Assembly (NCBI RefSeq): GCF_025244685.1
Contig: NZ_CP104202.1
Coordinates: 1,748,471 to 1,812,470, forward strand
From: Chlorobaculum sp. MV4-Y
GTDB lineage: Bacteria; Bacteroidota; Chlorobiia; Chlorobiales; Chlorobiaceae
Length of the DNA stretch: 64,000 nucleotides
Direction: 5' to 3'
Shown here one piece after another: positions 2,563 through 52,118 of the stretch. The translations under genes and the position numbers were made by a program. Numbering within the stretch: position 1 is the first letter of the stretch; the number at the start of each line of letters is the position of its first letter. The notes under the pieces were generated by a model that saw only the letters and a list, made by a program, of their open reading frames with translations, was not told the origin of the DNA and did not search any database.

Positions 2563-4575
2563 ATGACACGCACTCGTTCCATCGATGAAGAGGCCGTCGC
2601 CACCATCAGGCTTCTGGCGGTCGATATGGTAGAAAAGGCCAAATCGGGCCATCCCGGACTGCCGCTCGGCGCGGCTCCGATGGCCTACACGCTCTTCACG
2701 AAAATCATGCGGTTCAACCCCGCCAATCCGGAGTGGCCGAACCGCGACCGCTTCGTGCTCTCGGCGGGCCACGGCTCGGCGCTGCTCTACGCCATGCTGC
2801 ACCTGTGCGGCTACGGCCTCGGCATGGATGAGCTGAAGCAGTTCCGGCAGCTCGGCAGCCGCACACCGGGACACCCCGAATATGGACACACGCCGGGCGT
2901 CGAAACGACCACCGGCCCGCTCGGCCAGGGTATTGCCACCGCCGTCGGCATGGCTGCCGCCGAACGCTTCCTCGCCGCCAAACTCAACACGTTGGAACGG
3001 CCGCTCATCGACCACTTCACCTACGTCATCTGCGGCGACGGCGACCTCATGGAGGGCATCAGTTCGGAGGCCTCGTCACTGGCAGGCCACCTCAAGCTCG
3101 GACGCCTCATCTGCCTCTACGACAGCAACCACATCAGCATCGAAGGCTCGACCAGCCTGGCCTTCACGGAGGATGTCGCCCGCCGCTACGAGGCCTACGG
3201 CTGGCACGTCCTGTCGCACATCGACGGCAACGACCTTGCGGCCATCGAGCAAGCGGTGCGCGACGCGCAGGAGATCGACGACCGGCCATCAATGATCATC
3301 GTCAACACCACCATCGGCTACGGCAGTCCGCACAAGCAGGGCACCGCTTCAGCACACGGCGAGCCACTCGGCCCGGAAGAGACAAAGCTGGTCAAGCAGG
3401 CGTTCGGGTTTGATGAAAATGAATCGTTCGTCGTGTCGGAAGCGGTGTACGCCCACTTCCGCGAGCTGGCCAAGCGCGGTGCGACGCTCGAAGCCGAATG
3501 GCAAGCGCGGTGGCAAGCGTTTGAGCGTGACGAGCCTTCGCTCGCCTCGGCAATCTCCGACCTGCTCGCGGGCCGATTCCCGGAAGCGTGGCTGCCGGAT
3601 GCGCCGGAGTTCGCGGCGGGCGAAAAGCTCGCCACGCGGCAGGCATCGAAAAGCGTGCTTGCCAAAATCGTAGAAAAGGCGCCACTGCTAGCGGGCGGCT
3701 CGGCTGACCTGGCCCCGTCGAACGGCACGCTCCTCGGAGCCGCTTTCGAGGCTGGAAGCTACGGCGGCTCGACCTTCCATTTCGGCGTCCGGGAGCACGC
3801 AATGGGCGCGCTTGTCAACGGCATGGCGCTGTCAAAAATGATGATTCCGTACGGCGCAACCTTCCTCGTCTTTGCCGACTACATGAAGCCCGCGCTGCGC
3901 CTGGCCGCAATGATGCAGTCCCCCTCGATCTTCATCTTCACCCACGACAGCATCGGCCTCGGCGAAGACGGCCCGACCCACCAGCCCGTCGAGCAGCTCG
4001 CCATGCTCCGCGCCATGCCGGGCTTCGACGTGTATCGCCCGGCGGACGCCAACGAAACGGCAGCGGCCTGGCTGCTCGCGCTGAAGCGCCGGAAACCGGC
4101 AGCGCTCGTGCTAACGCGCCAAGGGTTGCCTGTGCTCGAAGACGTTGACAGAGGTATTCGGGACGGCGTAGCGAGGGGCGGTTATGTGCTTGCGGATTGG
4201 CCAGATAACGCCGACGACACCCGGCGGGTCATCATCGTGGCCACCGGCTCCGAGGTGCATCCGGCGCTTGAAGCGAAGGCGCTGATCGAAAAAGAGGGAT
4301 TCGCCGCGCGGGTGGTCTCGATGCCGTCGCGAGAGCTGTTCGCCGAGCAACCGGCAGAGTACCGTGACGCCGTGCTGCCACCCTCGGTTCGAGCGCGCGT
4401 CGTCGTCGAAGCCGCTGCAACCTTCGGCTGGCACGACATTTCGGGCGACGGCTGCGCGGTGATCGGCATCGACCGCTTCGGCATGTCGGCCCCCGGCCCG
4501 CAGGTGATGGAGCACTTTGGCTTCACCGCCGCCAACATAACCGCCCGCGCCCTTGAACTGCTGAACCGGAAATGA
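2563..4575 (+). CDS. tkt: transketolase
   Basis: 670 aa. N-terminal TPP-binding motif GHPGLPLGAAPMAYTLF and full-length transketolase architecture. Confidence 0.95.
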   Translation: MTRTRSIDEEAVATIRLLAVDMVEKAKSGHPGLPLGAAPMAYTLFTKIMRFNPANPEWPNRDRFVLSAGHGSALLYAMLHLCGYGLGMDELKQFRQLGSRTPGHPEYGHTPGVETTTGPLGQGIATAVGMAAAERFLAAKLNTLERPLIDHFTYVICGDGDLMEGISSEASSLAGHLKLGRLICLYDSNHISIEGSTSLAFTEDVARRYEAYGWHVLSHIDGNDLAAIEQAVRDAQEIDDRPSMIIVNTTIGYGSPHKQGTASAHGEPLGPEETKLVKQAFGFDENESFVVSEAVYAHFRELAKRGATLEAEWQARWQAFERDEPSLASAISDLLAGRFPEAWLPDAPEFAAGEKLATRQASKSVLAKIVEKAPLLAGGSADLAPSNGTLLGAAFEAGSYGGSTFHFGVREHAMGALVNGMALSKMMIPYGATFLVFADYMKPALRLAAMMQSPSIFIFTHDSIGLGEDGPTHQPVEQLAMLRAMPGFDVYRPADANETAAAWLLALKRRKPAALVLTRQGLPVLEDVDRGIRDGVARGGYVLADWPDNADDTRRVIIVATGSEVHPALEAKALIEKEGFAARVVSMPSRELFAEQPAEYRDAVLPPSVRARVVVEAAATFGWHDISGDGCAVIGIDRFGMSAPGPQVMEHFGFTAANITARALELLNRK

Positions 4576-5372
4576 ACACCATGGCACACTGGATCAGCGA
4601 GCCGCTCGACGCGCTTCTCGAAAAAGCGGTCGCCTTCATCACCGACACTGCTTATCAGGCAGTCGCCGAACGGGGCCGCTTCACGCTGGTGCTCTCGGGC
4701 GGCAACACGCCGCGAGCGCTCCACAAGCAGCTCGCCAAAGGCATCCGCGAAGAGCGCTACCTCGAACTCGGCTACAAGCTGCCCGCCGACGTACGCCGCT
4801 GCACCCGCGATCCGGAAGTGATCGTGCCGCCCTGGGCGCACACCCTGCTCTTCCAGGGCGACGAGCGCTACCTGCCGCCAAGCCACCCCGACAGCAACTA
4901 CGGCATGGCCCGCGAAACGCTCATCCGCAACATCTGCGTCAAAGCGTCGAACATCCACCGGATGCCAACCGAATCGGGCAACCCACAGGCGGACGCCCGC
5001 AGCTACGAATCGCTGCTCCGTGGCCTGTTCCGCAAACACGCCAGCGACGACGCCCCGCCCTCATTCGACCTCATCCTCCTCGGCCTCGGCGACGACGGCC
5101 ACACCGCATCCCTCTTCCCCGGCGACCACAAATCGCTCGACGAAAAAGAGCGCTGGGTCATCGCCATCGATGCCCCCAACGGCAAACCGCCCGGAATGAG
5201 GCTGACGCTGACCTTGCCGGTTATCAACGAAGCCAGGAACGCCCTCTTCCTCATCCCGCCGTCGAGATACGACTTCGCCCGCTCGATCAGCAACGGCGAG
5301 AGGCCAGAGTTGCCTGCGGGGATGGTTAGGCCAAGGAGTGGGAATGTGTGGTGGTTTGTGGAAGGGGGATAG
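4572..5372 (+). CDS. pgl: 6-phosphogluconolactonase
   Basis: ATGA overlap with the tkt stop. Motifs FTLVLSGGNTP and LLGLGDDGHTASLFPG. Confidence 0.85.
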   Translation: MNTMAHWISEPLDALLEKAVAFITDTAYQAVAERGRFTLVLSGGNTPRALHKQLAKGIREERYLELGYKLPADVRRCTRDPEVIVPPWAHTLLFQGDERYLPPSHPDSNYGMARETLIRNICVKASNIHRMPTESGNPQADARSYESLLRGLFRKHASDDAPPSFDLILLGLGDDGHTASLFPGDHKSLDEKERWVIAIDAPNGKPPGMRLTLTLPVINEARNALFLIPPSRYDFARSISNGERPELPAGMVRPRSGNVWWFVEGG

Positions 5373-5438
5373 AACTCAAAACACCCTCAATGACATTTTT
5401 TAGTGTTAGTTCTTTTTAGACTTCGGCTCCCCTATTCA

Positions 5439-5538
5439 GGCGGGATTCATCCCGCCGGACATTTCGGCTTTTGCATTCATGTTGCCCCGGACTTTAGTCC
5501 GGGGAAGAGAGAGCCTCTGCCCATATGGGCTTCAGCCC
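5439..5538. repeat. cluster of short palindromes (REP-like), including CCCCGGACTTTAGTCCGGGG
   Basis: GGCGGGATTCATCCCGCC (5439-5456), CCCCGGACTTTAGTCCGGGG (5485-5504), GGGCTTCAGCCC (5527-5538). Second copy near 52381. Confidence 0.6.
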
Positions 5539-5648
5539 AATTTCTTACAACGGCGGCGATTGCAATTTTTTGTCGCAGAGGCAATTGAAATGGCAATATA
5601 AGCCTGAGTGTCCATGTCAGAACATTCAAAATCCTCCCCCCACCTTCC

Positions 5649-7085
5649 TCACCCGTAAATCCGCGACGATTCCGGCCCCCAGCTATGCACAGGATATTGC
5701 TCCGGAACCTGGCCGTCAATGGAATCTTTCAGGCTGTCGATAATTTCCCACGAGTACTCCACGCTGTCTTTGCGGATGAAGTTCATCTGGTTGCCTTCGA
5801 TGGCGTCGAGCAGCAGGCGATGGTACGGTGTGAGGCCCTCGCCCTGAAAGGTTCCCCGGTAATCGAACTTCATGAACACCGGATCGGTGATCATCTGCTC
5901 GCCGGGGCGTTTCGCGCCGAAGCGGATGGCGACCGTTTCGTCGGGCTGGATGCCAAGCACCACCTGGTTCGGCGTGCAGCACGCCGCGCCACCCGAAGGC
6001 CCGTAGTAGTTCTGCGGCGGGCAGCGGAAGGTGATGACGATTTCAGTCACGCTTTTGGCGAGGTTCTTGCCCGCCTTCATGTAGAACGGCACGCCCGACC
6101 AGCGCCAGTTGTCGATGTGGAACTTCACGGCGGCGAAGGTCTCAACTTTCGAATCCGGCGCGACATTTTTCTCGCTCTGATACCCCTCGTACTGACCGAT
6201 CACCACCGAGTCGCGCACGGAATCGGTAGTGAAGTGGCGCACCGAGCGCAGGATTTTGGACTTCTCGTCGCGAATCGAATCGGCGCTGAGATCAACTGGC
6301 GGCTCCATTGCGATGGCCGCGAGAAGCTGCAAGCCGTGATTCTGGATGATGTCACGCAAGAGTCCCGACTCCTCGTAGTAAGCGCCGCGATCACGAATGC
6401 CGAAATCCTCGGCGATGGTGATCATGACCTGCGCGATATACTGCCGGTTCCAGAGCGGCTCGAAGATGCCGTTGGAGAAGCGGAACACCATGATATTCTG
6501 CACAGGCTCCTTGCCGAGGTAGTGGTCGATGCGATAGACCTGCCGCTCCTCGAACACCTCGTCGATGACCCGGTTCAACTCGCGGGCGCTTTCGAGATCG
6601 TAGCCGTAGGGCTTTTCGGCGATGATCTTGCGCCACCCGGTGCACGACTGTTCACGCCCGCCCAGCCCGGCCTTGCCGAGACCGCGCACCACGGCGGGTG
6701 CGAGGCTCGGCGGTATCGACAGGTAGAACATCAGGTTATGGCAGGTTCGCCCTTTCTCCTCTTCACGCTGAATCTCATCACGCAGCGCTTCGTAGCCCGC
6801 CGGATCGTCGAGATCGGAGCGGACATAAAAAAGTCGGCTACAGAAAGCGTCGAGCCGCGCTGCTTCAGCGGCAGCTTCGGGCGAGTGCTCCAACAGGCGC
6901 TCGCGAACGAAAGCGCGGAACTCATCGTGGCTTTGCTCCCGCCGCCCGACGCCGATCAGCCGGAACAATTCAGGCATATGCCCCCACCGCGCAAGCTGGA
7001 AAACTGACGGGAAAAGCTTGCGCGAGGCCAGGTCGCTGCTCGCGCCGAAGATGACGATGGTGAAATTGTCGAGAGTGCCGCTCAT
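5649..7085 (-). CDS. zwf: glucose-6-phosphate 1-dehydrogenase
   Basis: 478 aa. N-terminal [21 protein letters not shown]-binding motif and G6PD family length. Confidence 0.95.
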
Positions 7086-7999
7086 GCTTTGCCCTCCCCG
7101 GATTCAGGTGCCTGGAACGCATGACCGCCGAACTCATGCCGCAGCGCCGCGACCACCTTGTCAGAAAAGTTCTCCTCGCTCTGCGAACGGAAGCGCCGGA
7201 ACAGCGAGCCGGAGATGATCGGCACGGCAACGCCGAGATCAAGGGCCGCCTCGACCGCCCACCGCCCCTCGCCCGAATCGGCCACCTTGCCGCCGAGCCA
7301 GCCGAGGTCGTTGTCCTGCGCGAATGCCTTGCCCGCAAGATCCATGAGCCAGCCGCGGATCACCGAACCGTTCGACCAAACCCGCGCCACGTTCTGATTG
7401 TTGAGGTCGTAGCCGCTGGCCCGAAGTAGCTCGAACCCCTCGCCGATGGCCTGCATCATGCCGTACTCGATGCCGTTGTGCACCATTTTCACGAAGTGGC
7501 CTGAGCCGCTCGCGCCCATGTAGCCGTAGCCGTTCTCGACGCAGAGGTCACGCAGCATCGGCTCGACGTGGTCGTACGCCTCGCGGTCGCCCCCGGCCAT
7601 CATGCACGCGCCGTGACGAGCGCCGTCCAAACCGCCGCTGGTGCCGATGTCGAGCATCCGAATGCCCTGCTTGCGGAGCTTTTCTGCGCGAGCGACAGAG
7701 TCGGTGTAACGGGAGTTGCCGCCGTCAATAACGATGTCACCCGCTTTCAGGAACGGCGTGATTCCATCGATCACCGCATCGACCGGACGGCCTGCGGGCA
7801 CCATCACCCAGACGACACGCGGTACGGCAAGTTCACCGACCAGATGCTGCAACGAACTGGCTGCCATCGCCCCTTTGGCCGCAATCGCCGCAACCGCTTC
7901 CGTTGAAAGATCGAACGCCACCACCTCGTGGCCAAGTTCAAGCAGATGCTCGACCATGTTGAACCCCATCTTGCCAAGACCTACAAACCCTATCTTCAT
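7082..7999 (-). CDS. gnd: 6-phosphogluconate dehydrogenase (decarboxylating), short NAD-binding form
   Basis: [19 protein letters not shown] Rossmann N-terminus. 4-nt overlap with the zwf start. Confidence 0.85.
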
Positions 8000-8426
8000 A
8001 TGAAATCTCCGTTTTTAGGAGTTGTTACCCCCTCCGTTGATTATTGGTTCCGCCCTTCTGTTAACAAGCTGCAAACCCAAGCAACACAGACGAGAAATAC
8101 GGATTTGCATTCAGAGACTACCTCAAAAAAGTTTCATCGCCAGTAATCTGACGCTGTATTTGATTGTCATTCTGAACGAAGTGAAAAATCCAGCATTCCC
8201 GAAAAATCACAATAACTGAATGATCCACAATATCTTGCAAGCCCCCACCGGATTCTTCGTTTGACTTTGTCGAACTCAGAATGACAATAAACGCAAAAAT
8301 GCGTCCTTCATTCAGAAATGGCTTTTGTACCAGACAGCCTCGGGCAAAGAAACAACGGCCACTAAAAATCATTTGCAACTGACAAACCGATTGTTCAGAT
8401 TCATTCACTTAACTAATGATTCATCA

Positions 8427-9860
8427 ATGGGCAGTGAAATAGCAAAAACAGAGTTCAGCAAGGAGGATTTCCGGCAGTTTCAGCAGAATCTCAGAAAAGA
8501 GACGCGGCTGCTGATGGAGTGGTTTTCCGCTGATACGTTCGAAAACCACCAGGTGATGTGCGGCTTCGAACTCGAAGGGTGGCTTGTCGATCAGAATTGC
8601 AATCCGGCAGCACGGAACGAGGAGTTCCTCGCAAAGGTCAACAACCCCCTCGTGGTGGCGGAGCTGTCGAAATACAACTTCGAACTCAACGTTGCGCCCC
8701 ACCCGCTGAACCGCCAACTCTCCGGATTCCTGCGGGACCAGCTTCAGACGCTCTGGGACGACTGCTCCCGCCATGCGCGTGAAATGGGATGCCAGACCCT
8801 GATGACAGGCATTCTGCCAACCTTGCAGGACAGGATGCTGACCCTCCAGAACATGTCGTCGATGCAACGGTTTCACGCCCTGAACCGTGAAATCCTACGC
8901 ACCAGATCATGCCATCCGCTCAAAATAAACATCGAAGGCCCAAACGACCGGCTGGAGATAGTGCATGATGACGTCATGGCAGAGGCGGCGACCACCTCGC
9001 TGCAGATTCACTTTCAGGTTCCGCTCAGCAAAGCCGCTGCATTTTACAACGTCGCGCATGTGCTCTCGGCTCCAATGGCCGCCCTCTCGGCCAACTCGCC
9101 ATTCCTGTTCGGCAGAGAGCTGTGGGACGAAACCCGCATTCCGCTCTTTGAGCAGGCCGTGCACACCCCGTCGTTCGTCGATCTCTCCGGCAGGCCGGTT
9201 TCGCGCGTCACCTTCGGTCGCGATTATGTGCGCGATTCGCTGAAGGAGGTGTTCCTCGAAAATCTCGACGGATTCCCGGTGCTCCTGCCGGTCACTTTCG
9301 ACCACGATCCCGGCATGATGCACCATCTGCGGCTGCACAACGGCACCATCTGGCGCTGGAACCGTCCTCTGATCGGCTTCGGCGAAAATGGACGCCCGCA
9401 CCTGCGCATCGAACACCGGGTTCCGGCGGCGGGGCCGTCGATTTCCGACGTCATCGCCAACATCCTCTTTTTCTATGGCACGATGCTCTACCTTCAACCG
9501 GAGGTTCCGCAGAGCTCCATATCGTTTGAACAGGCGCGAGCGAATTTCTACGCCGCCGCCCGCTCCGGCCTCGACGCACAAGTCAGATGGACGTCGGGCG
9601 ATTCGATGCCCGTCGAGACGCTCATTTTGCAGCACCTGATTCCCGGCGCGATTCTGGCGCTCGCCGCGGCGGGATTCGGTAGTAGTGACCTGCGCTACTA
9701 CCTCGTCGATATTCTGGCGCAGCGGGTGGCTTCGCGCCGCAACGGCGCATGGTGGCAGAAGGCCTTCGTCAAAAAGCACGGCCCCGACTTCAAGATGCTG
9801 ACGCAGGCGTACCTCGAAAACCAGAACCTCGGCACTCCCGTCCACGAATGGAGCATCTGA
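8427..9860 (+). CDS. glutamate--cysteine ligase family protein (gamma-glutamylcysteine synthetase-like carboxylate-amine ligase)
   Basis: Start chosen at MGSEIAK (the ORF tool starts further upstream at a TTG in AT-rich intergenic DNA). MCGFELEGWLVD-type GCS motif. About 477 aa. Confidence 0.5.
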   Translation: MGSEIAKTEFSKEDFRQFQQNLRKETRLLMEWFSADTFENHQVMCGFELEGWLVDQNCNPAARNEEFLAKVNNPLVVAELSKYNFELNVAPHPLNRQLSGFLRDQLQTLWDDCSRHAREMGCQTLMTGILPTLQDRMLTLQNMSSMQRFHALNREILRTRSCHPLKINIEGPNDRLEIVHDDVMAEAATTSLQIHFQVPLSKAAAFYNVAHVLSAPMAALSANSPFLFGRELWDETRIPLFEQAVHTPSFVDLSGRPVSRVTFGRDYVRDSLKEVFLENLDGFPVLLPVTFDHDPGMMHHLRLHNGTIWRWNRPLIGFGENGRPHLRIEHRVPAAGPSISDVIANILFFYGTMLYLQPEVPQSSISFEQARANFYAAARSGLDAQVRWTSGDSMPVETLILQHLIPGAILALAAAGFGSSDLRYYLVDILAQRVASRRNGAWWQKAFVKKHGPDFKMLTQAYLENQNLGTPVHEWSI

Positions 9861-10897
9861 ACCACCTCCCTGTTCCGGCGCTCCACCGCCTGGAGCGTCT
9901 GCCCGAAGGCTTCACCGACACGCCAGTCGAAAAAATCGGCTCTATCCTGCTCGGCCCGTCGCTGATCTGGATCGAGGGCGAACCGGGGCCGCCGCTCTTC
10001 GTGTCGATTCTCCTGCACGGCAACGAAACCACCGGCTTCGACGCCACGCAGCGGCTGCTCAAAGCATACGACGCGCCCCGCCGACCGCTGCCGAGGCCGC
10101 TGCTGCTTTTCGTAGGCAACGTGGCCGCCGCCGGGCTGGGATTGCGCACGCTCGACGGGCAAGCAGATTACAACCGCATCTGGCATGACGAGCGCTATCC
10201 GGAGCACCGGCTGGCGCAGGAGGTGCTGGCGGAAATCGCCAAAGCCTCGCCGCTCGCCGCTATCGACCTGCACAACAACACCGGCAAGAACCCGCACTAC
10301 GGCTGCGTCAACCGGCTCGACGACGCCACGCTCAGCCTCGCCCGCCGCTTCAGCAAAACCATCGTCTGGTTCACCGAACCGCATGAGGTGATCTCGATCG
10401 CTCTGTCACAAATCTGTCCCTCCGTGACGCTCGAATGCGGCGTGTCGGGCAACGCCGCCGGAACAAGTCATGTGGAGCGATACCTCCAAAACTGCCTCGA
10501 ACTCTCCGCCGAAGAGCTCTTTACGCCACCCCCAAATCATCTCAGCGACCTGTTCCACACCACCGCCAAAATCGTCGTGCGCGATAGGCTGCGCTTGGAA
10601 TTCGGCGTGTGCGGAAATGAGGCAGATCTCTGCCTGCGCAAAGACCTCGAAACCCTCAACTTCGAGCGCGTCCCCGAAGGCGCGGAGCTGGGAAGCTATC
10701 GAGGCAACGCTCCGCCACTCGTGGTGATCGACAACGACGAATGCGACGTCACCAATCGCTACCTCCGCTTCAGCGAAGAGCGGATTTTCACGCGCCTGCC
10801 GATCGTCCCCTCGATGTTCACCCGCGACGTGCGCGTCATCATGCAGGACTGCCTCGGTTACATCATGGAACCGTACGAAGTGAAGGGGACAGTTTAA
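9848..10897 (+). CDS. succinylglutamate desuccinylase/aspartoacylase (AstE/AspA) family zinc deacylase
   Basis: Start MEHLNHLP overlaps the upstream stop by 13 nt. HGNETTG zinc-binding motif. Confidence 0.6.
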   Translation: MEHLNHLPVPALHRLERLPEGFTDTPVEKIGSILLGPSLIWIEGEPGPPLFVSILLHGNETTGFDATQRLLKAYDAPRRPLPRPLLLFVGNVAAAGLGLRTLDGQADYNRIWHDERYPEHRLAQEVLAEIAKASPLAAIDLHNNTGKNPHYGCVNRLDDATLSLARRFSKTIVWFTEPHEVISIALSQICPSVTLECGVSGNAAGTSHVERYLQNCLELSAEELFTPPPNHLSDLFHTTAKIVVRDRLRLEFGVCGNEADLCLRKDLETLNFERVPEGAELGSYRGNAPPLVVIDNDECDVTNRYLRFSEERIFTRLPIVPSMFTRDVRVIMQDCLGYIMEPYEVKGTV

Positions 10898-43520: not shown

Positions 43521-43875
43521 ATTTTTGTGACGCTCTTTTCGCCGCCTGTTCTCTGCTGCCGTAGCTTGGCGGTCAACATATGTGCAGACAACCTTTTCAC
43601 GCTAATAAAAACTTATTTTTTATAACGGCCGAGTGTATGTGCCGTAAGGGATAGCGGAGCAGTTTCCTGTCCACCGGCACGAAAGTTTGAGCGGGATACA
43701 ACGCTTGAATACCCACTGAAACCCTTATGGCATATACACTTTGTTGTGCGTTCGGTGTTCTTGTTTTGTCTCGATTGTCTGCCAGTTGTGCGCAGGAACA
43801 GACACACTCTTTGCCAAGTTTTGGCTTGTGTGTTGGCTTGTGCGACTTGGCAATGTGTGTGGCTGTTGAGTTGGC

Positions 43876-45003
43876 TCATTTTCTCGACATTATTATATCA
43901 ACTTCTCCTGGCTTCATTGTCTTGTCCCCGAAGAGTTTTGTTTGAGTTTTTGTGTCCTTTGTCAAAGGTTTTTCGACAATCTTAACTGAATGATTTGGGA
44001 AATGCCTTTTCAGTATTTCAATTGTAGAGTTGAAAGTAAATTCTCTCTTGTCTGTCCGAACATAAACAGTGCTTTCTCTTTTCATCATTTTGGCACAAAG
44101 TCCAAAAACTTTGTCCAGTAAGTCATAATATTCTTGTTTATTTACAAATCGACCTTTATGCTTATCTTTTAGTGATTGAGGATTTTCTGAGCCACCTAAA
44201 AGCCACAGTCGCAACCACTGGTCTGCGTGATAGTCAGTAATCGAGTAATAGGGTGGTGAAGTAAACAGCAAAGAAAACTTTATATCATTGTTTATTGCTC
44301 TTTCTGCAATGTTTATTAATTTATTTGAACTATCACCGAACACAATGGCACTCTCAGAAACTTTTGGTTTACCTTTCTCGTAACGCCATTCGATTTTTTT
44401 GAGAATGAAATCACAGGGGTTTATTTCAGGCGGTGTGGTCATATTGTTTTTCTTCCACCATTGCACAGAGTAATTCATCCCCATTGATTTAGTCATTCTC
44501 ATTTGATTGGAAAGTCCTTCGCCAATTTTTGCGTGTAGGTAAATCAGAAGTATTGACATCAAAGTCGCATCAACTTTATTGTTTCTCCAATCTAAATGAG
44601 TTCGGGCGGCTAACAGGAATTTAAGAACTTCGTCACAGTAACAAATGCGATAAAATTCGGGCATTTTTTGGATTGCTCGGTTGTAATAGTTTCTCTTACT
44701 GTAAATTTCAAGTAGACGGTCAATGACTTCTTCTTTTTCTGCTGGTTGCAGTTTTACAGTTCCATACAACCAACCCACAGGGTTAATTTCTAATCCTAAA
44801 CTATTTCTTCCTAAAACGCCACCAGCATATATACTACTGCATCTACCCGCAAAAGGGTCAATTATATAATCACCATTCTTTGAGTATTTCTCAACTACAT
44901 CAAATGCAAATTCCAAAGGAAACATTGCATAGTATGGTCCAAACCTTGCCCAACGTGCTTCGGCAGTTTCAAAACCTTTCAATATTTTTTCCTTTGCTAT
45001 CAT
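43876..45003 (-). CDS. DNA methyltransferase, alpha-class (N4-cytosine/N6-adenine; SPPY motif)
   Basis: N-terminal motif I IDPFAGRCSS, about 200-aa spacer, then motif IV FTSPPYYSITDY. 4-nt overlap with the upstream NurA-like gene. Confidence 0.75.
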   Translation of the reverse strand: MIAKEKILKGFETAEARWARFGPYYAMFPLEFAFDVVEKYSKNGDYIIDPFAGRCSSIYAGGVLGRNSLGLEINPVGWLYGTVKLQPAEKEEVIDRLLEIYSKRNYYNRAIQKMPEFYRICYCDEVLKFLLAARTHLDWRNNKVDATLMSILLIYLHAKIGEGLSNQMRMTKSMGMNYSVQWWKKNNMTTPPEINPCDFILKKIEWRYEKGKPKVSESAIVFGDSSNKLINIAERAINNDIKFSLLFTSPPYYSITDYHADQWLRLWLLGGSENPQSLKDKHKGRFVNKQEYYDLLDKVFGLCAKMMKRESTVYVRTDKREFTFNSTIEILKRHFPNHSVKIVEKPLTKDTKTQTKLFGDKTMKPGEVDIIMSRK

Positions 45004-46367
45004 TCTTTTGATTTCTCTCTTATTTCTCTTGCTATGTCTTCAAAAATTCGCTTGCCTAAGTTCAAAGGAATTGCTGTTTCTGCGTGTGCTGAAACTAACG
45101 GAGAAACAGAATTCGGGTATCTGCTTGAAACAAGTTGGTCTAGTAAATTCATAACATCTGCTAATCTTGTAAATTGGTCAGGATTTGCTGTATCAAGATT
45201 TCTTTGATACTCGTTGAAACAAGCTACGACAGGAACAATTTTTTGACCTGATGCCGCTTTGTAGAAAAGTTTTCTTCCAAAATAAGTGTCTTGACCGTAA
45301 GGTTTGATACTCTCAGAAAAAATGATATTTCGTTTTATGTAGCCGTCATTTAAGAGTAAGGCAGATTGTTTTGGAAATTTATCAGTTACGCCATCTTTGG
45401 TAGTGTCTATATCAATGAAGTGATTGAAGAATGTTCCTGATTTTTCAATTCCAATGATTAAAAGGTCTTGACCATTTATTTTCCGTTGAAGGTCATTCAG
45501 CCGAGTTAATTCGTGACTTATAACTTTTGTTAACCATGATGAAGTGCTAAATACAGCTAAAGGTCCATCCATTATAAAAGCAACTCTGCGAAGTGTTGCT
45601 AACCAACCTTTGCGTTCAAATGCTCTTAGAATGTGAACAAGCCAAAGTTTTTCAAGAGTGGACATTATTTGCCCAAACATTTCACCATTGCTCCCGCCTG
45701 GGTTCATAAGTTCGTGTAAACGCAAAGCATCAGTTGAGAAAAGCGGCTCGCCTGAATGAGGACAAGTATATTCCCCAAAGTCATAAGTCATTTCTTCTTC
45801 AACTCCTTCAATTGGGCTTCTTGGTAAATTTCTTTCTTGAAAATGTTCACGTTTTATTCTAAAAAGATGCTCGTAGGTGTCAAGCAAACTTTCCCCATCT
45901 GAAAAAATGGTGTTGCTGCGTAACTCTTCAAATAAAGCTCTCCGTAAGGAAGACTTAGCATTTTTTTCTGTATCGAGAATTACATTACAACCGGGAAAAA
46001 CGCTTTCAATGGTTGATGCTTTTTCGGTTTCACGAAATTTCTTTGGTTCAACAAATTCCTTTTTTTCTAACTCTCCAATTAATTTCAAGTCAATTAAAAC
46101 GGAAGCAATGGTAATGTAACCAAATTCAGCACCAGGAAATCCGTTTTCTGCTTTTGCCGCTAAATTGCTTCCATCAATTGCAAGAACTAAATCAGGTTGT
46201 AAGGTACTTTCGGTCAAATCAGATTTTTTGACTATTGAACCTTCAAAGTCTTCTGTTTCTTCTTCCTGTTGCCTTATTTTAAGTCGGTTTTGAAGTGATT
46301 TGACTTTTTCACTATCAAGTAACCGTCTTAAAGGCTCGTAACTGGCAAATTCCCCTTCAAAACTCAT
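45000..46367 (-). CDS. NurA-like nuclease
   Basis: N-terminal LVLAIDGSNLAAKA (NurA IDGS catalytic motif). 455 aa. Located 11 nt downstream of the HerA-like gene. Confidence 0.45.
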   Translation of the reverse strand: MSFEGEFASYEPLRRLLDSEKVKSLQNRLKIRQQEEETEDFEGSIVKKSDLTESTLQPDLVLAIDGSNLAAKAENGFPGAEFGYITIASVLIDLKLIGELEKKEFVEPKKFRETEKASTIESVFPGCNVILDTEKNAKSSLRRALFEELRSNTIFSDGESLLDTYEHLFRIKREHFQERNLPRSPIEGVEEEMTYDFGEYTCPHSGEPLFSTDALRLHELMNPGGSNGEMFGQIMSTLEKLWLVHILRAFERKGWLATLRRVAFIMDGPLAVFSTSSWLTKVISHELTRLNDLQRKINGQDLLIIGIEKSGTFFNHFIDIDTTKDGVTDKFPKQSALLLNDGYIKRNIIFSESIKPYGQDTYFGRKLFYKAASGQKIVPVVACFNEYQRNLDTANPDQFTRLADVMNLLDQLVSSRYPNSVSPLVSAHAETAIPLNLGKRIFEDIAREIREKSKE

Positions 46368-46378
46368 ATGATAGTGTG

Positions 46379-48484
46379 TTAAACTTCAAACCTGTCCACT
46401 TGAACAGGAATGACAAATAGGTTACTTAAAGTTTTTACTCTTAAAAACCCTTTATCTTGGGCTCGTCTTATGGATGGTTCAAAGTCTGCAAAGTCGTAAT
46501 ACTTGCAAAGTTCTTTTGTCTCATCGGTATTGTTCAAATGGCTAATAAACCAATTGGCAGTGTTTTTAAGAATGTTCTTTTGAATGCTGCTTACTTCTTG
46601 CGTGGCGTATACCATTCCGATGCGATATTTAGAACCTTCTTTTGCAGTCCTTACCCAAATGTCTGATAAATCTAAATCATTACCTGCAGGCAAAATATTG
46701 TGGGCTTCTTCAACATAAACTAAAATTTCAGGAATGTTTGTTTCGCCTTGAACAAATTTTCTTTGATTTTCTTTGAAAATCTTTGTCATTATTCTGGTCG
46801 CAGAAGATTTGTTGAGTTCGGGTTCTCCACTTGATTGGTCAATTATTACCAATTTACCTTGAACAAGGTGGTTGTAAATATCTTCTGCATAATCACTTGT
46901 TGTGTCGGCACTATGTTGTTCTGCCGCTTTGCCGATTTTTCTAGTTCCGTTGGGATATTGAAAAATGCCAATGATTTTTTTCAAATCTTCATCAGCCCAT
47001 CTGTCGCCTGAGCCATTAGGACGACTTACATAAGCATTTTCAAATGTCGTGTAATTACTGCTGCTGTCTCGAATGAATTTATCTAATGCTTCAAAAGCGT
47101 TAGCAAGTTGACCCCAAGCAGGATTTGGGTTTGAGAATACTTGTGCTGCTGAAACATATTCAGGGGTTGGCGGATTATTATTTCTTCCCGTTTGAAGGGC
47201 GGTAATCAAGTCTTGATTAAAAAGACCCCTTGTGCTTGCCCTTAAACTTGGTGGAACTTGAAAACCTGCTCTGGCTAATACTGAACGATAGGCTAATAAT
47301 CGTCTGTTATAACGTGTAGTTGCACTTCGGTCATTTGGGTCAGGTTCATCAAAGCTTACTTGGCAGAATTGTTTGATGTAATTAGTGCTATCTTCTGATA
47401 GGATGCTATCAATTATACTTTTTCCAATCTGCGTATTACTTGTTTCAAAGAAGTTTAGAAGCATTAAGGTTCTTTCAGGGTCATTTGGATGTCTTGTAAT
47501 TCCATAGGTAATAACTTCGTTTGCCTTTACACCATTTGGCAAAAGTTGCCAAACATTTTTAAGAGCGGAATTATTGTCCTGAACATTTTCATTTGCATAC
47601 TCACCATTTGGGTCAAAAATAATTTGCCCTATTCGTAGCGGTCTGTCATTAGGATTTTCATTTTTTCTTAATTCAAATACTGATTTGGCGATAATTTTAG
47701 TGGTGTTTGATTTACCCGTTCTTGTCATACCGAACAATGCAGATTTTTGAGATAGCAAGTCCGCAGGATATATATAAACTGGAACATCATCTACTTGCTG
47801 ATATTTACGATTTGTTGAAGCATAGCGAACAAATCCAAGTTTCACTCTCTCTGTGTTTCCGTATTTCTCTGTGTGAGCCTGAATACTTGTAGGGTCTGCG
47901 TAATTTACGATTTGTTCAAGTGCTTTTCCGTTTGGCTTATAAACTTTCAAGCCCCTGTTTGGGTAGTAATTAGAAATATCGCTACCAAATTTCAGATTAA
48001 GAGGGGCGTCACCATTATGACCGTTTTCTTCAAGAAAGAATGTTCCAATAATTCGGCATTGAACACCAGCAAATCCAAGAATGTTTTTTGTTCGCAAGTC
48101 CATTGAACCTGCATCATCCCAATGTTTTTCAGTTTCTCCGCTTATTCTTTGAGCCGTTTCAACTCTAATTCTTTCTGCTTCTTTGTCTTGTGGTAAAGTT
48201 GCTGCATCCATTACTCGTAAAAGAACAAATGAAGCATCTTCCTTTTTAAAGTCAATATCTGTTTTACTTGGGTCAACTCGTGTCGCAATTAGAAAACTTA
48301 AACTTGGTATTCCACCAACTTTCTCTCTGTAAAAGTCGTGAATGATTACTCTTGCTGTCTCATAGTTGATAGAGTAAATGTCACCAACATACTGGTCTGC
48401 TTGAATAAGCTTTTGAAACCATTGTTGGCTTTCAACTTGTTTGTCGTTTTCTCGTCTTGAGTTAAGTCCCTGTTCTATACTCAT
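46379..48484 (-). CDS. HerA-like (FtsK/HerA superfamily, DUF87) ATPase
   Basis: Walker [14 protein letters not shown]. Walker [14 protein letters not shown] (DEAH-like, HerA-typical). 701 aa with a long N-terminal region. Confidence 0.6.
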
Positions 48485-48780
48485 ATTGTCAAATTATTAG
48501 TTGTCAAATTTATTAATTTCTGTCGGTGCGTTGGCAAAAAAATGGCTCTTTTGGTTTTTTGAGTTTTGGCTCGTGTGTCGGCAAAAACCAAATGTGCCAT
48601 TTGCGTGTCGGCTGTCTTTTTTACACTGACGCACAACGTTTTGCGGCTTTGCGTAGTGGCGGATTTCGGAGCACAAAACTGTCAACATACCACAAAAGCT
48701 GATGCGAGGTAGAATGTTCAATTAACCACTGAACCCGCCATTACGCAAAACCGCTGTTGGGTGCTGGCCTTCTATCTTTG

Positions 48781-49920
48781 TCAGAACATTTTGATTTGTT
48801 CACCGTGTTCAAATTCAAATTCTTTATGTCCGTCTAATACTTCTAATGCTTCTCTAACTTTTAAAGCAATTTTCTTTGCAAATATCACGGGAACTGCGTT
48901 TCCAATTTGGAGTTGTAATTCTCTTTTGTTGTTTCCGTAAAAAATCCAATCATCTGGAAAAGTCTGCAATCTCGCATATTCCCTTGCTGTAAAAGGTCTG
49001 ATTTTACTTGCTTTTATTCTCCAAAGTTTTGCAGTCGACTCAGGGTTTCTTACATACATTGCATTGTCTCTGTCCTTGTCAATTCTTTCTGCTACAACAT
49101 TGCCAATAGCCCAACCCCAAACGGTTGCTGTGTCAATTGCTGGAAAAGGAGAGTCAAAATCTCTGATTGGGTTTCCTTCTGATGCCGTTCTACTAAGTCT
49201 AACAGGAATTACAATTTCAGATTCGTCATATGGTAGCCCTGTTTCTGTATGAGCATAGCTTTTAAAGCCCCATTCAGGATTATGATTTGGTAATTCAATG
49301 TTTAAATTTTGTCCTAGTTCGTATATGAATTTCCTTATTCCTGTTTCCTTTTCTGCTCTTGGAAATTTGAAGTGTTTTAATGTGTCATCCTTGTAAGCGA
49401 TAAAAACAAAACGTCTTCTTGTTTGAGGAACTCCGTGTTCTGAAACTCTAAAAAAATCAAATTCTGTAGTATACCCGATTGAAGCAAGTTCATCTGAAAT
49501 CTGTTGTGCAAAAGGTTTGCCTGTTTCAGGGTGGGTCATTGTCCTAAGATTAAGAACATTTTCCATTACAATCACTCTGGGTTGCATTATACTCGCAATC
49601 CTGACAACTTCACGGTATAAAGTATTTCTTTCGTCATTTTCATCCCTGTTGCCACCAAGTGAAAATCCTTGACAAGGAAACCCTGCTAATAAAACATCTA
49701 GGCCACTCTTAAATGAGGGAGTATATTCTCGAACGTCTCCATGTATTATATCCCAATTTGGTCTGTTAGATTGTAAAGTATTGACTGCATAATCTAAAAT
49801 TTCATTTGATTCTGTATGTTCAAACCCTGCTAACTCAAAACCTAAGTCAAGTCCACCCGCACCTGTAAAAAGGCCGAGAAACGTATAGTTTGTTTTGGTT
49901 TCCTTCTTTAACTGATTCAT
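48781..49920 (-). CDS. DNA (cytosine-5)-methyltransferase
   Basis: Motif I FLGLFTGAGGLDLGF, motif IV GFPCQGFS, motif VI ENV. Confidence 0.9.
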   Translation of the reverse strand: MNQLKKETKTNYTFLGLFTGAGGLDLGFELAGFEHTESNEILDYAVNTLQSNRPNWDIIHGDVREYTPSFKSGLDVLLAGFPCQGFSLGGNRDENDERNTLYREVVRIASIMQPRVIVMENVLNLRTMTHPETGKPFAQQISDELASIGYTTEFDFFRVSEHGVPQTRRRFVFIAYKDDTLKHFKFPRAEKETGIRKFIYELGQNLNIELPNHNPEWGFKSYAHTETGLPYDESEIVIPVRLSRTASEGNPIRDFDSPFPAIDTATVWGWAIGNVVAERIDKDRDNAMYVRNPESTAKLWRIKASKIRPFTAREYARLQTFPDDWIFYGNNKRELQLQIGNAVPVIFAKKIALKVREALEVLDGHKEFEFEHGEQIKMF

Positions 49921-49923
49921 TGC

Positions 49924-50772
49924 TTATTTGGTTAAAGGTGGAATAATAGGAATGGAGGCTGTTCTCTCTTTTGGAGAACGCAGTTTGCAAGCATCAAAAA
50001 TATCTGTGAGTGTGGCTAAACTCCCTTTTGACTTACCTGCTGATTTTGTTTCATCTTTCAGATAATAGTAAAATGAATTGCCGTATTTATCGGTTCTGAT
50101 GATTTGTTCGCTAACAAAATCAGTAGATTTTATTTTTTCTAAATCAGACTTTTTTGCAACGAGAATTTGTCGAAGGTGAAATTCAGATATTTTGGAATTT
50201 AATGGATTTGGGTAGGTGTACATTTTTCTGTGTCGTACCGAACCTTCTCCATAAGGGCCGTGATTATATTCTGTGTAGTTTGAATATTTTGACTCTTTAT
50301 GCAATTCAAAATCATAGTTCAAAAAGTCTCCGTCTATCAGTATCAGAGTAACTATGTTTTTGCTGTCATTGTCAAGAAGTGCGAAAAGGTAAAAGCAAGG
50401 AATTATTATTGTTTCTGCACCAACTTTGATTAGTGTCGAGCCACAAGGCAAACTACTATTGTAGTCAATTGTCAAGCCCCTTGAATCGCTTCCGTTAGGT
50501 TTTTGGATTAATTTTTTAATTTCTAAACCAACAACTGTCCCTGATTTCGTATCTCTAACAACTAAGTCAGGGGTTGTCAATGAGCCTGAATGGTAAATTT
50601 CAAAAGATTTTGGTAATGCCTTTTTTATTTCTGCTTCAATCCAATTGTCAAATGGGTCGTCTTGAACTGTCCCAACTATTGACTTTGCTCTCATATCAAC
50701 AGGGATTCCGTTGCTCCCAATTTTGGAAATCAACTCTCGGTATATTCGTAAAATTATTTCTAGTTCTGTCAT
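49924..50772 (-). CDS. putative Type II restriction endonuclease (PD-(D/E)xK)
   Basis: TPDLVVRDTKSGTVVGLEIKK matches a PD...(D/E)xK pattern. The stop lies 3 nt before the C5-MTase start. Confidence 0.5.
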   Translation of the reverse strand: MTELEIILRIYRELISKIGSNGIPVDMRAKSIVGTVQDDPFDNWIEAEIKKALPKSFEIYHSGSLTTPDLVVRDTKSGTVVGLEIKKLIQKPNGSDSRGLTIDYNSSLPCGSTLIKVGAETIIIPCFYLFALLDNDSKNIVTLILIDGDFLNYDFELHKESKYSNYTEYNHGPYGEGSVRHRKMYTYPNPLNSKISEFHLRQILVAKKSDLEKIKSTDFVSEQIIRTDKYGNSFYYYLKDETKSAGKSKGSLATLTDIFDACKLRSPKERTASIPIIPPLTK

Positions 50773-50969
50773 ATTTCTTTAATGGTCAAAGTTACAAAAT
50801 TCAGGTCTGCTATCTCCATTTTAGCCCTGTCATTTTACTTGGTGGTCGTCTTTTAGGCTTGCACCCAACTTGCTTATCTGCGCTACTCTATAGCGCCTTA
50901 CATGCCATATTAGACAAATAAGCGCGACAAAGTAGCGTGTTATTGTCCGGCGTGGTCTTGTTACAGTTA

Positions 50970-52118
50970 TTACAAATCATCGAATGGACTTTTAATCTGC
51001 TGTAAACTTTTTTTGCTGACATGGGTATAGATTTCGGTGGTCTTGCTGCTTTTGTGCCCCAGAAGTTCCTGAATATACCTGAGGTCGGTTCCCGATTCCA
51101 GCAGATGAGTGGCATAACTGTGCCGTAACCAGTGCAGCGTTACCGGTTTTGTAATGGAAGCTTTTTTCAATGCATGTTTCAATACCTGTTCAAGACTTCT
51201 TGCGCTGTATTGGGTATCGGGAAATTGCCCTTCGAAAAGCCATTGCTTTGGTTTGCAGGCCTTATAGTATTCACGCAACATTCCAATCACTTTGTTTGAA
51301 ATTGGCGCTACCCTGTCTTTGTGGCCCTTGGCATCTTTTATGATGAGAAGGCCACGTTTGGAATCCACATGTTCGGGTCTAAGGTTCAGCAGCTCACTGC
51401 GCCTGAGTCCACAGGCGTAGATCAGGCTGAGCATTGTTCGGTGTTTCAGATTTGTGGGCGCTTCCAGAATCTCTTTTACCTCTTCTTTGCTCAGCACATT
51501 CGGCAGTTTGTGCTGTGAACGAGGACGTTGCAGTTTTTCTGGCCAGAGCGTTGCGTCATGTATAACTCTGAAAAAAAGCTTTGCTGCATTAACTACCTGG
51601 TTTTGATATGCATAACTTAATCCATTGGGCAAGATGTATTCGTTGACAAAACGCACCATATCCTCGCTGGTTATCTCGTTGGCTTGTTTCGGACTGATGA
51701 ATCTCAGGAATACTTCGAGAACCTGCAGGTAGGTTTTGACGGTAGAATCGCTATAGCGCTTGTGCAGCAGCCACTGCCTGAACGTATGAAGCTCTTGAAG
51801 CAATTGCGGCGAAAGCGTGGCCTGTATTATGGTCTTTTGCTGAGCAGATGTGGTTCTGTTGCCTCGGGTTGCCAGGTGCTTTTCTCTGAAAGCAGAATAA
51901 TCTACCCAAGCTTTGCCCTTGAACTGCTTGAGCATCAGATCGATCACCTCGTCCGATTCAGGAATATACCAACGGTTACAACTGCTACTCCAGCGTACGC
52001 CCTTTAACTGCTTCACCTCAGCAGTCAGGGCTTCATCGTATGGAAACTCAAGCACCACCCGCTTTTCACCCCTGTGCTCAAAGGGCGTAATCCGTATGAC
52101 GGTGCTTGCATGAGGCAT
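50970..52118 (-). CDS. tyrosine-type site-specific integrase/recombinase
   Basis: C-terminal HWLRHSYATHLLESGTDLRYIQELLGHKSSKTTEIYTHV (R..H..R..Y catalytic box) and an N-terminal SAM-like domain. Confidence 0.85.
   Translation of the reverse strand: MPHASTVIRITPFEHRGEKRVVLEFPYDEALTAEVKQLKGVRWSSSCNRWYIPESDEVIDLMLKQFKGKAWVDYSAFREKHLATRGNRTTSAQQKTIIQATLSPQLLQELHTFRQWLLHKRYSDSTVKTYLQVLEVFLRFISPKQANEITSEDMVRFVNEYILPNGLSYAYQNQVVNAAKLFFRVIHDATLWPEKLQRPRSQHKLPNVLSKEEVKEILEAPTNLKHRTMLSLIYACGLRRSELLNLRPEHVDSKRGLLIIKDAKGHKDRVAPISNKVIGMLREYYKACKPKQWLFEGQFPDTQYSARSLEQVLKHALKKASITKPVTLHWLRHSYATHLLESGTDLRYIQELLGHKSSKTTEIYTHVSKKSLQQIKSPFDDL

Follow-up and report, generated by a model that had tools for sequence, protein, structure and literature searches.

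We analysed a 64,000-nucleotide stretch of the genome of Chlorobaculum sp. MV4-Y (contig NZ_CP104202.1, positions 1,748,471 to 1,812,470 of the forward strand; hereafter the window, whose numbering we use throughout), in which a first-pass annotation had described three closely packed minus-strand genes for a HerA-type ATPase, a NurA-type nuclease and an alpha-order PF01555 DNA methyltransferase (MTase). The open reading frames (ORFs) matched that description exactly: the ATPase gene occupies 46379..48484 (701 amino acids), the nuclease gene 45000..46367 (455 amino acids) and the MTase gene 43876..45003 (375 amino acids). Both of the described junctions are present in the nucleotide sequence, with 11 nt (cacactatcat) between the TAA stop codon of HerA and the ATG of NurA, and an ATGA overlap shared by the NurA stop and the MTase start. 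The motifs GMTRTGKS, VEEAH, IDGS and motif I followed by SPPY were all found as reported, and profile searches of the kind that the annotation had suggested upheld its three family assignments (PF01935, E=2.6e-12; PF09376, E=8.4e-32; PF01555, E=2.2e-12). The triad lies in a low-GC block (0.37–0.41 GC versus about 0.55–0.60 outside) that also holds a tyrosine recombinase (PF00589), a C5 cytosine MTase (PF00145) and an ORF of 282 amino acids with a PD...ExK motif.

The ATPase matched the DUF87/HerA profile with 47.8 bits (cut-off 23.2), and its Walker A (residues 252–259) and Walker B (residues 591–595) motifs are invariant across the family. A helical insert at about residues 300–520 is the most variable part of the whole system. 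The closest sequence relative of the ATPase in the PDB is TdpA of the phosphorothioate (PT) system TdpABC (8wet_A; E=4e-14 for the sequence by itself, 7.6e-17 for a profile of the family); all other HerAs in the PDB, including Sir2-HerA, DUF4297-HerA and archaeal HerA, scored 2e-8 or worse, and further matches were to 8j4u, 8wiv and 8ziq. The protein fell below the NCBIfam equivalog cut-offs of NF040819 (41 bits versus 970) and NF042943 (34 versus 800) and, being under the thresholds for HerA repair helicases and anti-phage HerAs, belongs to a distinct subfamily. PADLOC 2.0 returned generic HerA models, DndH and mad8 (E=1.3e-11), all as weak matches. An AlphaFold2 model of HerA built from a shallow alignment (81–99% identical) reached a pTM of 0.35 and gave nothing below E=1 in Foldseek, and it was not used. 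A subset of the HerAs, of about 747 amino acids, has a coiled-coil-like insertion.

The nuclease combines its NurA profile match with an RNase H-like fold and conserved acidic and histidine residues: AIDGS lies at residues 63–67, and the catalytic-type residues D65 (IDG), D213, H218, E239, D267 (DGPLA) and H316 do not vary even in homologues of 22% identity. In the PDB, neither sequence nor profile searches gave a match, and relatives emerged by fold comparison alone, the nearest solved one being TdpB at 13–15% identity. At 50% identity this NurA subfamily falls into 626 clusters. No model in PADLOC 2.0 matches the window protein. Distant homologues carry a CxxC...CxxC zinc-ribbon insert at about residues 180–210 (45740–45830 in the window); of these cysteines the clade of the window protein keeps C202 alone, so the zinc ribbon has degenerated there.

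In the MTase, motif I (DPFAGRCSS, residues 49–57) precedes motif IV (TSPPYY, 248–253) by around 190 residues, and WLRLW follows motif IV. This is the motif order of the alpha group of amino-MTases. In the beta-ordered PF01555 profile motif I lies in the C-terminal part, and it is this part that the N-terminal stretch matches, as befits an alpha-type permutation. The motifs are invariant in homologues of only 19–26% identity that likewise adjoin HerA and NurA, and these distant enzymes keep a common layout of DPFxGxGT ... TSPPY ... NWIRLW. SPPY is typical of N4-methylcytosine enzymes. The TSPPY motif accordingly makes N4-methylcytosine the most likely predicted product, with N6-methyladenine possible; matches to N4-cytosine MTases in the PDB were weak (E=0.15). 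The family alignment revealed no hypervariable segment of the kind expected for a target-recognition domain (TRD), so the family probably shares one specificity. Among PADLOC 2.0 models, the MTase matched neither mad2 nor the MTases of BREX or DISARM.

We searched for relatives and retrieved more than 120 NurA clusters at 80% identity or above, from Bacteroidota, Acinetobacter and others, and compared 42 loci from assemblies and species-representative genomes (numbered here with the prefix L, as are loci from the searches described below). Co-occurrence across genomes had been proposed as a check on the triad, and HerA, NurA and MTase stood together, in the same order and on the same strand, in all 40 loci with enough contig to tell. 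A metagenome scan yielded 444 relatives; among the best 80, a complete HerA was present in 60 of the 62 loci with room for it on the contig, and a complete MTase in 66 of the 67. The short gap between HerA and NurA and the overlap between NurA and the MTase are conserved across relatives. The unit recurs at about 100 other loci in at least six bacterial phyla, with hosts in Bacteroidota, Ignavibacteriota, Cloacimonadota, Chlorobiota, Gammaproteobacteria (Acinetobacter, Alteromonas and Parabeggiatoa) and others, and identities of 57–99% across such diverse hosts indicate recent horizontal spread. No relative was found among 2.9 million viral contigs scanned. Chance falls far short of explaining the three-gene arrangement, and the triad is a genuine unit, self-contained and co-inherited. 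With their conserved active-site motifs the three proteins are intact enzymes, and they are inherited and transferred together. The bioinformatic outcomes that the first-pass annotation had named as fatal to its proposal, proteins outside the NurA or HerA/FtsK families or a triad not conserved as a unit, did not materialize.

Identity to the window proteins varies from gene to gene within some loci: HerA, NurA and MTase are 62%, 57% and 82% identical in L039 and 65%, 82% and 80% in L006, and L020, L021 and L040 are likewise mosaic. Together with the insertion found in a subset of HerAs, this suggests recombination between cassette variants.

We then delimited the element that carries the triad. 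Nucleotide homology to other triad loci opens at 48603–48644, about 120–160 bp upstream of HerA, and homology to the closest loci closes at 43621–43624, about 250 bp downstream of the MTase. Both gene blocks in the low-GC region, the triad and the genes upstream of it, end in an imperfect palindrome of about 125 nt with arms of 19–23 nt, a spacer of 66–71 nt and RYYYAAC-like and GTTRRRY-like cores, as in the attC sites of integrons. The site of the triad cassette (43620..43749, minus strand) has R'' GCACAAC at 43749–43743, arms at 43740–43722 and 43650–43632, and R' GTTATAA at 43626–43620, the cassette ending with the G at 43626. The other (48631..48762, minus strand) has R'' ACCCAAC at 48762–48756, arms at 48754–48732 and 48665–48643, and R' GTTGTGC at 48637–48631, and it marks the border between two cassettes. 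Across 13 such elements from 8 loci we found a common 17-pair stem with two bulges, in which 13 of the 17 pairs covary through double changes, and R' starts with GTT(A/G) in every element. Related elements bound cassettes in metagenome-assembled genomes of several phyla.

In integrons, the R'' of a cassette is complementary to G plus the first six bases of that same cassette, and recombination takes place at G|TT. This complementarity held at 7 of 7 positions in both window cassettes and in L007, L057, L058, L063 and L064, at 6 of 7 in L008 and at 4 of 7 in L060. GCACAAC is paired with G|TTGTGC in the triad cassettes of the window, L007 and L063, and ACCCAAC with G|TTGGGT in those of L057, L058 and L064. 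The same rule predicts a junction GTTGGGT for the upstream cassette, which we found at 50869–50863, between the recombinase and the 282-residue ORF; that cassette begins TTGGGT at 50868. Taken together, the junctions and attC-like sites resolve the island into a recombinase, an attI-like region, cassette 1 (50868–48637, a Type II restriction–modification (R-M) pair) and cassette 2 (48636–43626, the triad). Cassette 1 encodes the C5 cytosine MTase (48781–49920, minus strand; PF00145, E=5e-61) and the 282-residue ORF (49924–50772, minus strand; motif TPDLVV...GLEIKK), which has no match in Pfam, NCBIfam, PADLOC or PDB sequences and, from its motif and position, is probably an uncharacterised Type II restriction enzyme. 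Neither gene adjoins the triad at any of the 42 compared or 80 metagenome loci. The island had been annotated as AT-rich, integrase-bearing and of defence type. Its low GC, its recombinase and the recurrence of a defence-type context stand, while the island is more exactly an integron-like array of two cassettes in which the Type II R-M pair is independent of the triad.

The recombinase that heads the array (50970..52118, minus strand; 382 amino acids, PF00589, E=1.8e-40) points the same way as the cassettes. It stays under curated NCBIfam cut-offs, scoring 217 bits for XerA (cut-off 220), 196 for the integron integrase model TIGR02249 (265) and 130 for NF011946 (435). For these two reasons we call the array integron-like and not an integron; it may represent a non-canonical integron family. 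Integron cassettes are documented carriers of phage-defence genes (bioRxiv 10.1101/2024.07.02.601719; PMC12614218). The triad cassette resembles these in its attC-like bounds, G|TT recombination point, R''/R' complementarity, homology breakpoints that coincide with these junctions, and adjacent tyrosine recombinase, and differs from them in its size (5.0 kb, three genes) and in the orientation and sub-threshold scores of the recombinase. A search for long-range direct repeats gave no att sites.

Beyond its three genes, the triad cassette has a 5' leader (48485..48636, minus strand) that begins TTGTGC right after the G of the upstream R' site and is conserved in L007, L008, L058, L060, L063 and L064. 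The leader contains a TTGACA...TTGACAAT stretch ahead of the HerA ATG and a hairpin at 48540–48602 (20-nt arms), also kept in other cassettes, that may be a regulatory or terminator element. Directly 3' of the MTase stop lies a second conserved stem-loop (43797..43867, minus strand; 23-nt arms), likewise kept in other cassettes and a possible terminator or regulatory hairpin. Promoter and terminator scans did no better than on shuffled controls, an Rfam search over the island gave no match, and the window has no tRNA genes. No Shine–Dalgarno-like sequence precedes NurA or HerA (46368–46378 and 48485–48520); HerA has a TAAATTTG/TAATTTG-type motif immediately before it (48485–48520). These two features and the GC content of 37% hint at an origin of the cassette in Bacteroidota-like hosts. 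An ORF of 88 amino acids at 43613..43879 was rejected as a gene; its translation is of low complexity, it has no family matches and it covers the attC-like site and the hairpin.

The proposed defence-type setting was also borne out elsewhere, as defence or mobile-element genes recur beside other triads. The Acinetobacter triad is cargo of a Tn7-like element, and that of Pontibacter lies within an island inserted at comM. One locus has GmrSD upstream and an OLD-ATPase/UvrD (Gabija-like) pair downstream, behind an integrase; another has ResIII/RE, HD, PIF1, Mrr and Fic as neighbours, and a third an integrase, HigBA-like genes and AAA_15. Tallying the three nearest ORFs on each side of 20 non-redundant loci, we found dGTPase (3), GajA/PtuA/AriA/Old-type ATPases (3–4) and mad3 with PADLOC, and Schlafen/AlbA_2, Panacea, integrases and transposases with Pfam. 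In other cases the triad has housekeeping genes on either side, as a cassette of three genes and nothing more.

Some cassettes hold additional genes. A dGTPase of defence type (PADLOC E~1e-69; HD and HD_assoc) begins within a few bases of the MTase stop in L009 (12489–13877) and in L012 and L013 (12516–13895), and in these loci the cassette seems to comprise four genes. In L036, a gene at 9144–9989 that fuses a GIY-YIG nuclease to DUF4357/RAMA stands between HerA and NurA, and L037 has a similar spacing of about 860 bp. RAMA stands for 'restriction enzyme adenine methylase associated', and the L036 gene is predicted to be an R-M-type accessory.

Which known system does the triad resemble most? 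Both the HerA and the NurA of the window have their nearest solved relatives in TdpABC (comparison structures PDB 8wet, 8wfd and 8y1k), and in both systems a hexameric HerA-type ATPase and a NurA-fold nuclease are tied to one DNA-modification gene. In the literature, tdpABC is described as the third PT-based R-M system and tdpC alone makes the modification. The TdpABC study of An et al. in Nat Chem Biol 2025 reportedly found that PT marks inhibit both translocation and nuclease activity of TdpAB on self DNA. The third gene of the triad, in contrast, is a PF01555 methyltransferase and not the PT-forming TdpC, and Pfam and PADLOC revealed no PT genes in the cassette. The window proteins are also larger (701 and 455 amino acids versus 586 and 358) and only distantly related, and their hosts are mesophilic and the element integron-, Tn7- or plasmid-borne, whereas TdpABC belongs to extreme thermophiles. 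A search with a TdpA fragment for loci with TdpB or TdpC returned only truncated or decayed contigs (L132 and L133).

The same gene content occurs in ICEth1 of Thermus thermophilus HB27, in which Tth111II, the NurA-like TTC1878, the HerA/FtsK ATPase TdtA (TTC1879) and a PF01555 methylase (TTC1880) lie beside a XerC-type integrase (PMC5365140, PMC7767461). This operon was characterised in 2017 as machinery for DNA donation ('transjugation'), for which NurA and TdtA are required (PMC5365140, PMC7767461). Like the triad, it joins a co-transcribed NurA-like protein, HerA/FtsK ATPase and PF01555 methylase on an integrative element with an R-M enzyme and a Xer-type integrase adjoining. It differs in its order (NurA–ATPase–MTase versus ATPase–NurA–MTase) and in the membrane association of TdtA, and we liken the two by gene content. 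The Thermus NurA and methylase are of 377 and 410 amino acids and those of the triad of 455 and 375. Almost all of the 150 best NurA representatives have 440–480 amino acids, and none clearly matches the 377-residue TTC1878.

Other systems share parts of the design. The end-resection complex of Archaea and Deinococcus uses the same two families, probably in the same hexamer-plus-dimer architecture, and degrades double-stranded DNA with ATP. Sir2-HerA, DUF4297-HerA and DndH or 'HerA-FtsK capture' systems employ a HerA-type ATPase against invaders; the triad differs in having NurA as its effector instead of Sir2, DUF4297 or a restriction endonuclease, and a dedicated MTase. Surveys of HerA-FtsK capture systems do not mention NurA. 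Type I and III R-M, BREX, DISARM and MADS also combine a self-marking MTase with an NTP-driven motor and a nuclease, and mad8, a P-loop component of MADS, weakly matches this HerA; here, however, the motor is a HerA/FtsK ring and not a superfamily 2 helicase, its partner nuclease adopts an RNase H fold instead of PD-(D/E)XK, and there are only three genes. We rejected MADS as an identity, as it comprises eight genes (mad1–8) with the N6-MTase mad2 and only HerA matches, weakly, to mad8; we likewise weighed and dismissed BREX-related capture systems and the HerA of the SXT hotspot. The first-pass annotation knew of no described system that unites a HerA–NurA pair with a modification MTase. This holds for PADLOC 2.0 and for the searchable literature, where full-text searches found no description of a HerA–NurA–methylase defence system, and needs amending in that TdpABC, with HerA, NurA and a modification gene, and ICEth1, with equal gene content, came before. 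The triad is most likely a methylation-based relative or variant of TdpABC, and ICEth1 supplies an earlier example of its gene set.

On balance, we think it probable that the three genes make up a compact restriction system based on modification, with an integron-type cassette as its carrier. The R-M-like logic offered at first, a self-marking MTase with an ATP-driven nuclease motor, is kept as the most economical interpretation. A HerA hexameric ring and a NurA dimer would form a TdpAB-like translocase-nuclease driven by ATP, which would thread and degrade double-stranded DNA and would probably enter at free ends, such as those of injected phage genomes or of transfer and replication intermediates. 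The MTase would mark the host genome, most likely with N4-methylcytosine and possibly with N6-methyladenine, and on self DNA these marks would halt the motor-nuclease, eject it or leave it unlicensed, as PT marks reportedly do with TdpAB. Translational coupling of NurA and MTase would keep protection and attack co-expressed, which would matter for a cassette establishing itself in a naive host. Candidate readers of the methyl mark are the helical insert of HerA, which is proposed as a sensor since it is the most variable part of the system, and the MTase itself, acting as a specificity subunit.

Several observations count against a restriction system of this kind. A backbone sulfur is sensed differently from a methyl group on a base, and we identified no sequence- or methyl-reading domain. 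One metagenome contig, L096, has intact HerA and NurA and an MTase truncated after about 115 residues (7368–7781), followed by unrelated sequence; it may be a genuine exception to R-M logic or a chimeric assembly artefact. Broken copies otherwise mostly lose HerA and retain the MTase (L032, L081, L126 and L051), an asymmetry of four to one that R-M logic would accommodate. Statistically it carries no meaning, since HerA is the longest of the genes. Translated searches (tblastn) of PLSDB with NurA and with HerA retrieved the identical five plasmids, three of which, from cyanobacteria, carry XRE, HerA, NurA and a small, unannotated ORF and lack the MTase (for example, 4619–8782 of the Calothrix plasmid L049 and 4464–8647 of the Tolypothrix plasmid L050). 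Methylation is therefore not universal to the HerA–NurA core, and the effector pair can exist without it. The other two are a Halorarius (haloarchaeon) plasmid with the order DUF87–NurA–MTase (33%, 27% and 25% identical to the window proteins) and a Deferribacter megaplasmid with the order MTase–HerA–NurA, its HerA interrupted by an IS200/IS605 element; the association of the three genes is old, but not universal. In ICEth1, finally, transfer was little affected when the methylase was lost (PMC5365140, PMC7767461).

The cyanobacterial plasmids and L096 lend themselves to a different explanation, in which HerA–NurA is a stand-alone effector, acting by abortive infection or anti-plasmid 'capture' upon a trigger other than missing methylation, and the MTase has a separate role in protection from other restriction systems, epigenetic regulation or addiction. 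The MTase, moreover, has no variable TRD that co-varies with motor or nuclease, and in Sir2-HerA and DUF4297-HerA the ATPase pairs with diverse effectors. We nevertheless hold this to be unlikely, given that the MTase is retained in 66 of 67 loci of the window clade with a conserved ATGA overlap with NurA, that its family co-diverges with HerA and NurA into Archaea, and that the closest characterised relative is modification-linked. Carriage on integron-type cassettes, Tn7-like transposons and plasmids, and an R-M-like architecture with coupled expression, would also suit a primarily selfish addiction module, with methylase and nuclease stabilising the cassette by post-segregational killing and phage defence being incidental. 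This is improbable as the main function, since the triad clusters time and again with genuine defence genes, which points to a benefit in defence; it is also compatible with a modification-based restriction system, the mechanism being the same and only the selected benefit differing. Were the triad DNA-mobilisation machinery after the manner of ICEth1, its NurA and HerA/FtsK pump would process and export donor DNA. A like gene set, the requirement for NurA and TdtA in donation, and the R-M genes and tyrosine recombinase that adjoin the window triad as well all fit that proposal, yet it is quite improbable: protein sizes differ, conjugation or competence genes are not consistently nearby, bare triad cassettes lie amid housekeeping genes while others are cargo of Tn7 or have defence genes around them, and the adjacent R-M pair is never co-inherited with it. 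A housekeeping machine for end resection at double-strand breaks, as the NCBI name 'DNA double-strand break repair nuclease NurA' would have it, draws on families that do include repair enzymes in Archaea and Deinococcus and is nonetheless very improbable in view of the mobility, composition and structural ranking of the triad, with no Mre11 or Rad50 as in the archaeal herA-mre11-rad50-nurA operon found in the window island or the annotated neighbourhoods.

If the triad is a modification-based restriction system, more may follow from it, and we advance tentatively, at somewhat less than even confidence, that it could be the founding example of a widespread R-M class spanning both domains. In such a class, base methylation would gate a HerA-ring translocase and a NurA nuclease, with a motor and nuclease chemistry unlike that of Type I–IV R-M, BREX or DISARM; the three genes would spread, ready for use as one cassette, through integron-like arrays headed by a non-IntI tyrosine recombinase, and the HerA–NurA core would serve as a general chassis with interchangeable self-marking modules (an MTase here, TdpC in thermophiles, and none or XRE in cyanobacteria). 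The TdpAB-type motor-nuclease would then extend from a rare PT system of thermophiles to a common methylation-based one ranging over Bacteroidota, Chlorobiota, Ignavibacteriota, Cloacimonadota, Gammaproteobacteria and haloarchaea. It would offer a way to address how base modification controls a ring translocase that tracks the DNA backbone, and the triad, as a compact 5-kb cassette with defined recombination boundaries, is readily cloned and assayed. The NurA–TdtA–methylase operon of ICEth1 in Thermus may need reinterpreting, and the finding, if true, suggests that many bacterial genes annotated as 'DNA double-strand break repair nuclease NurA' are immunity genes.

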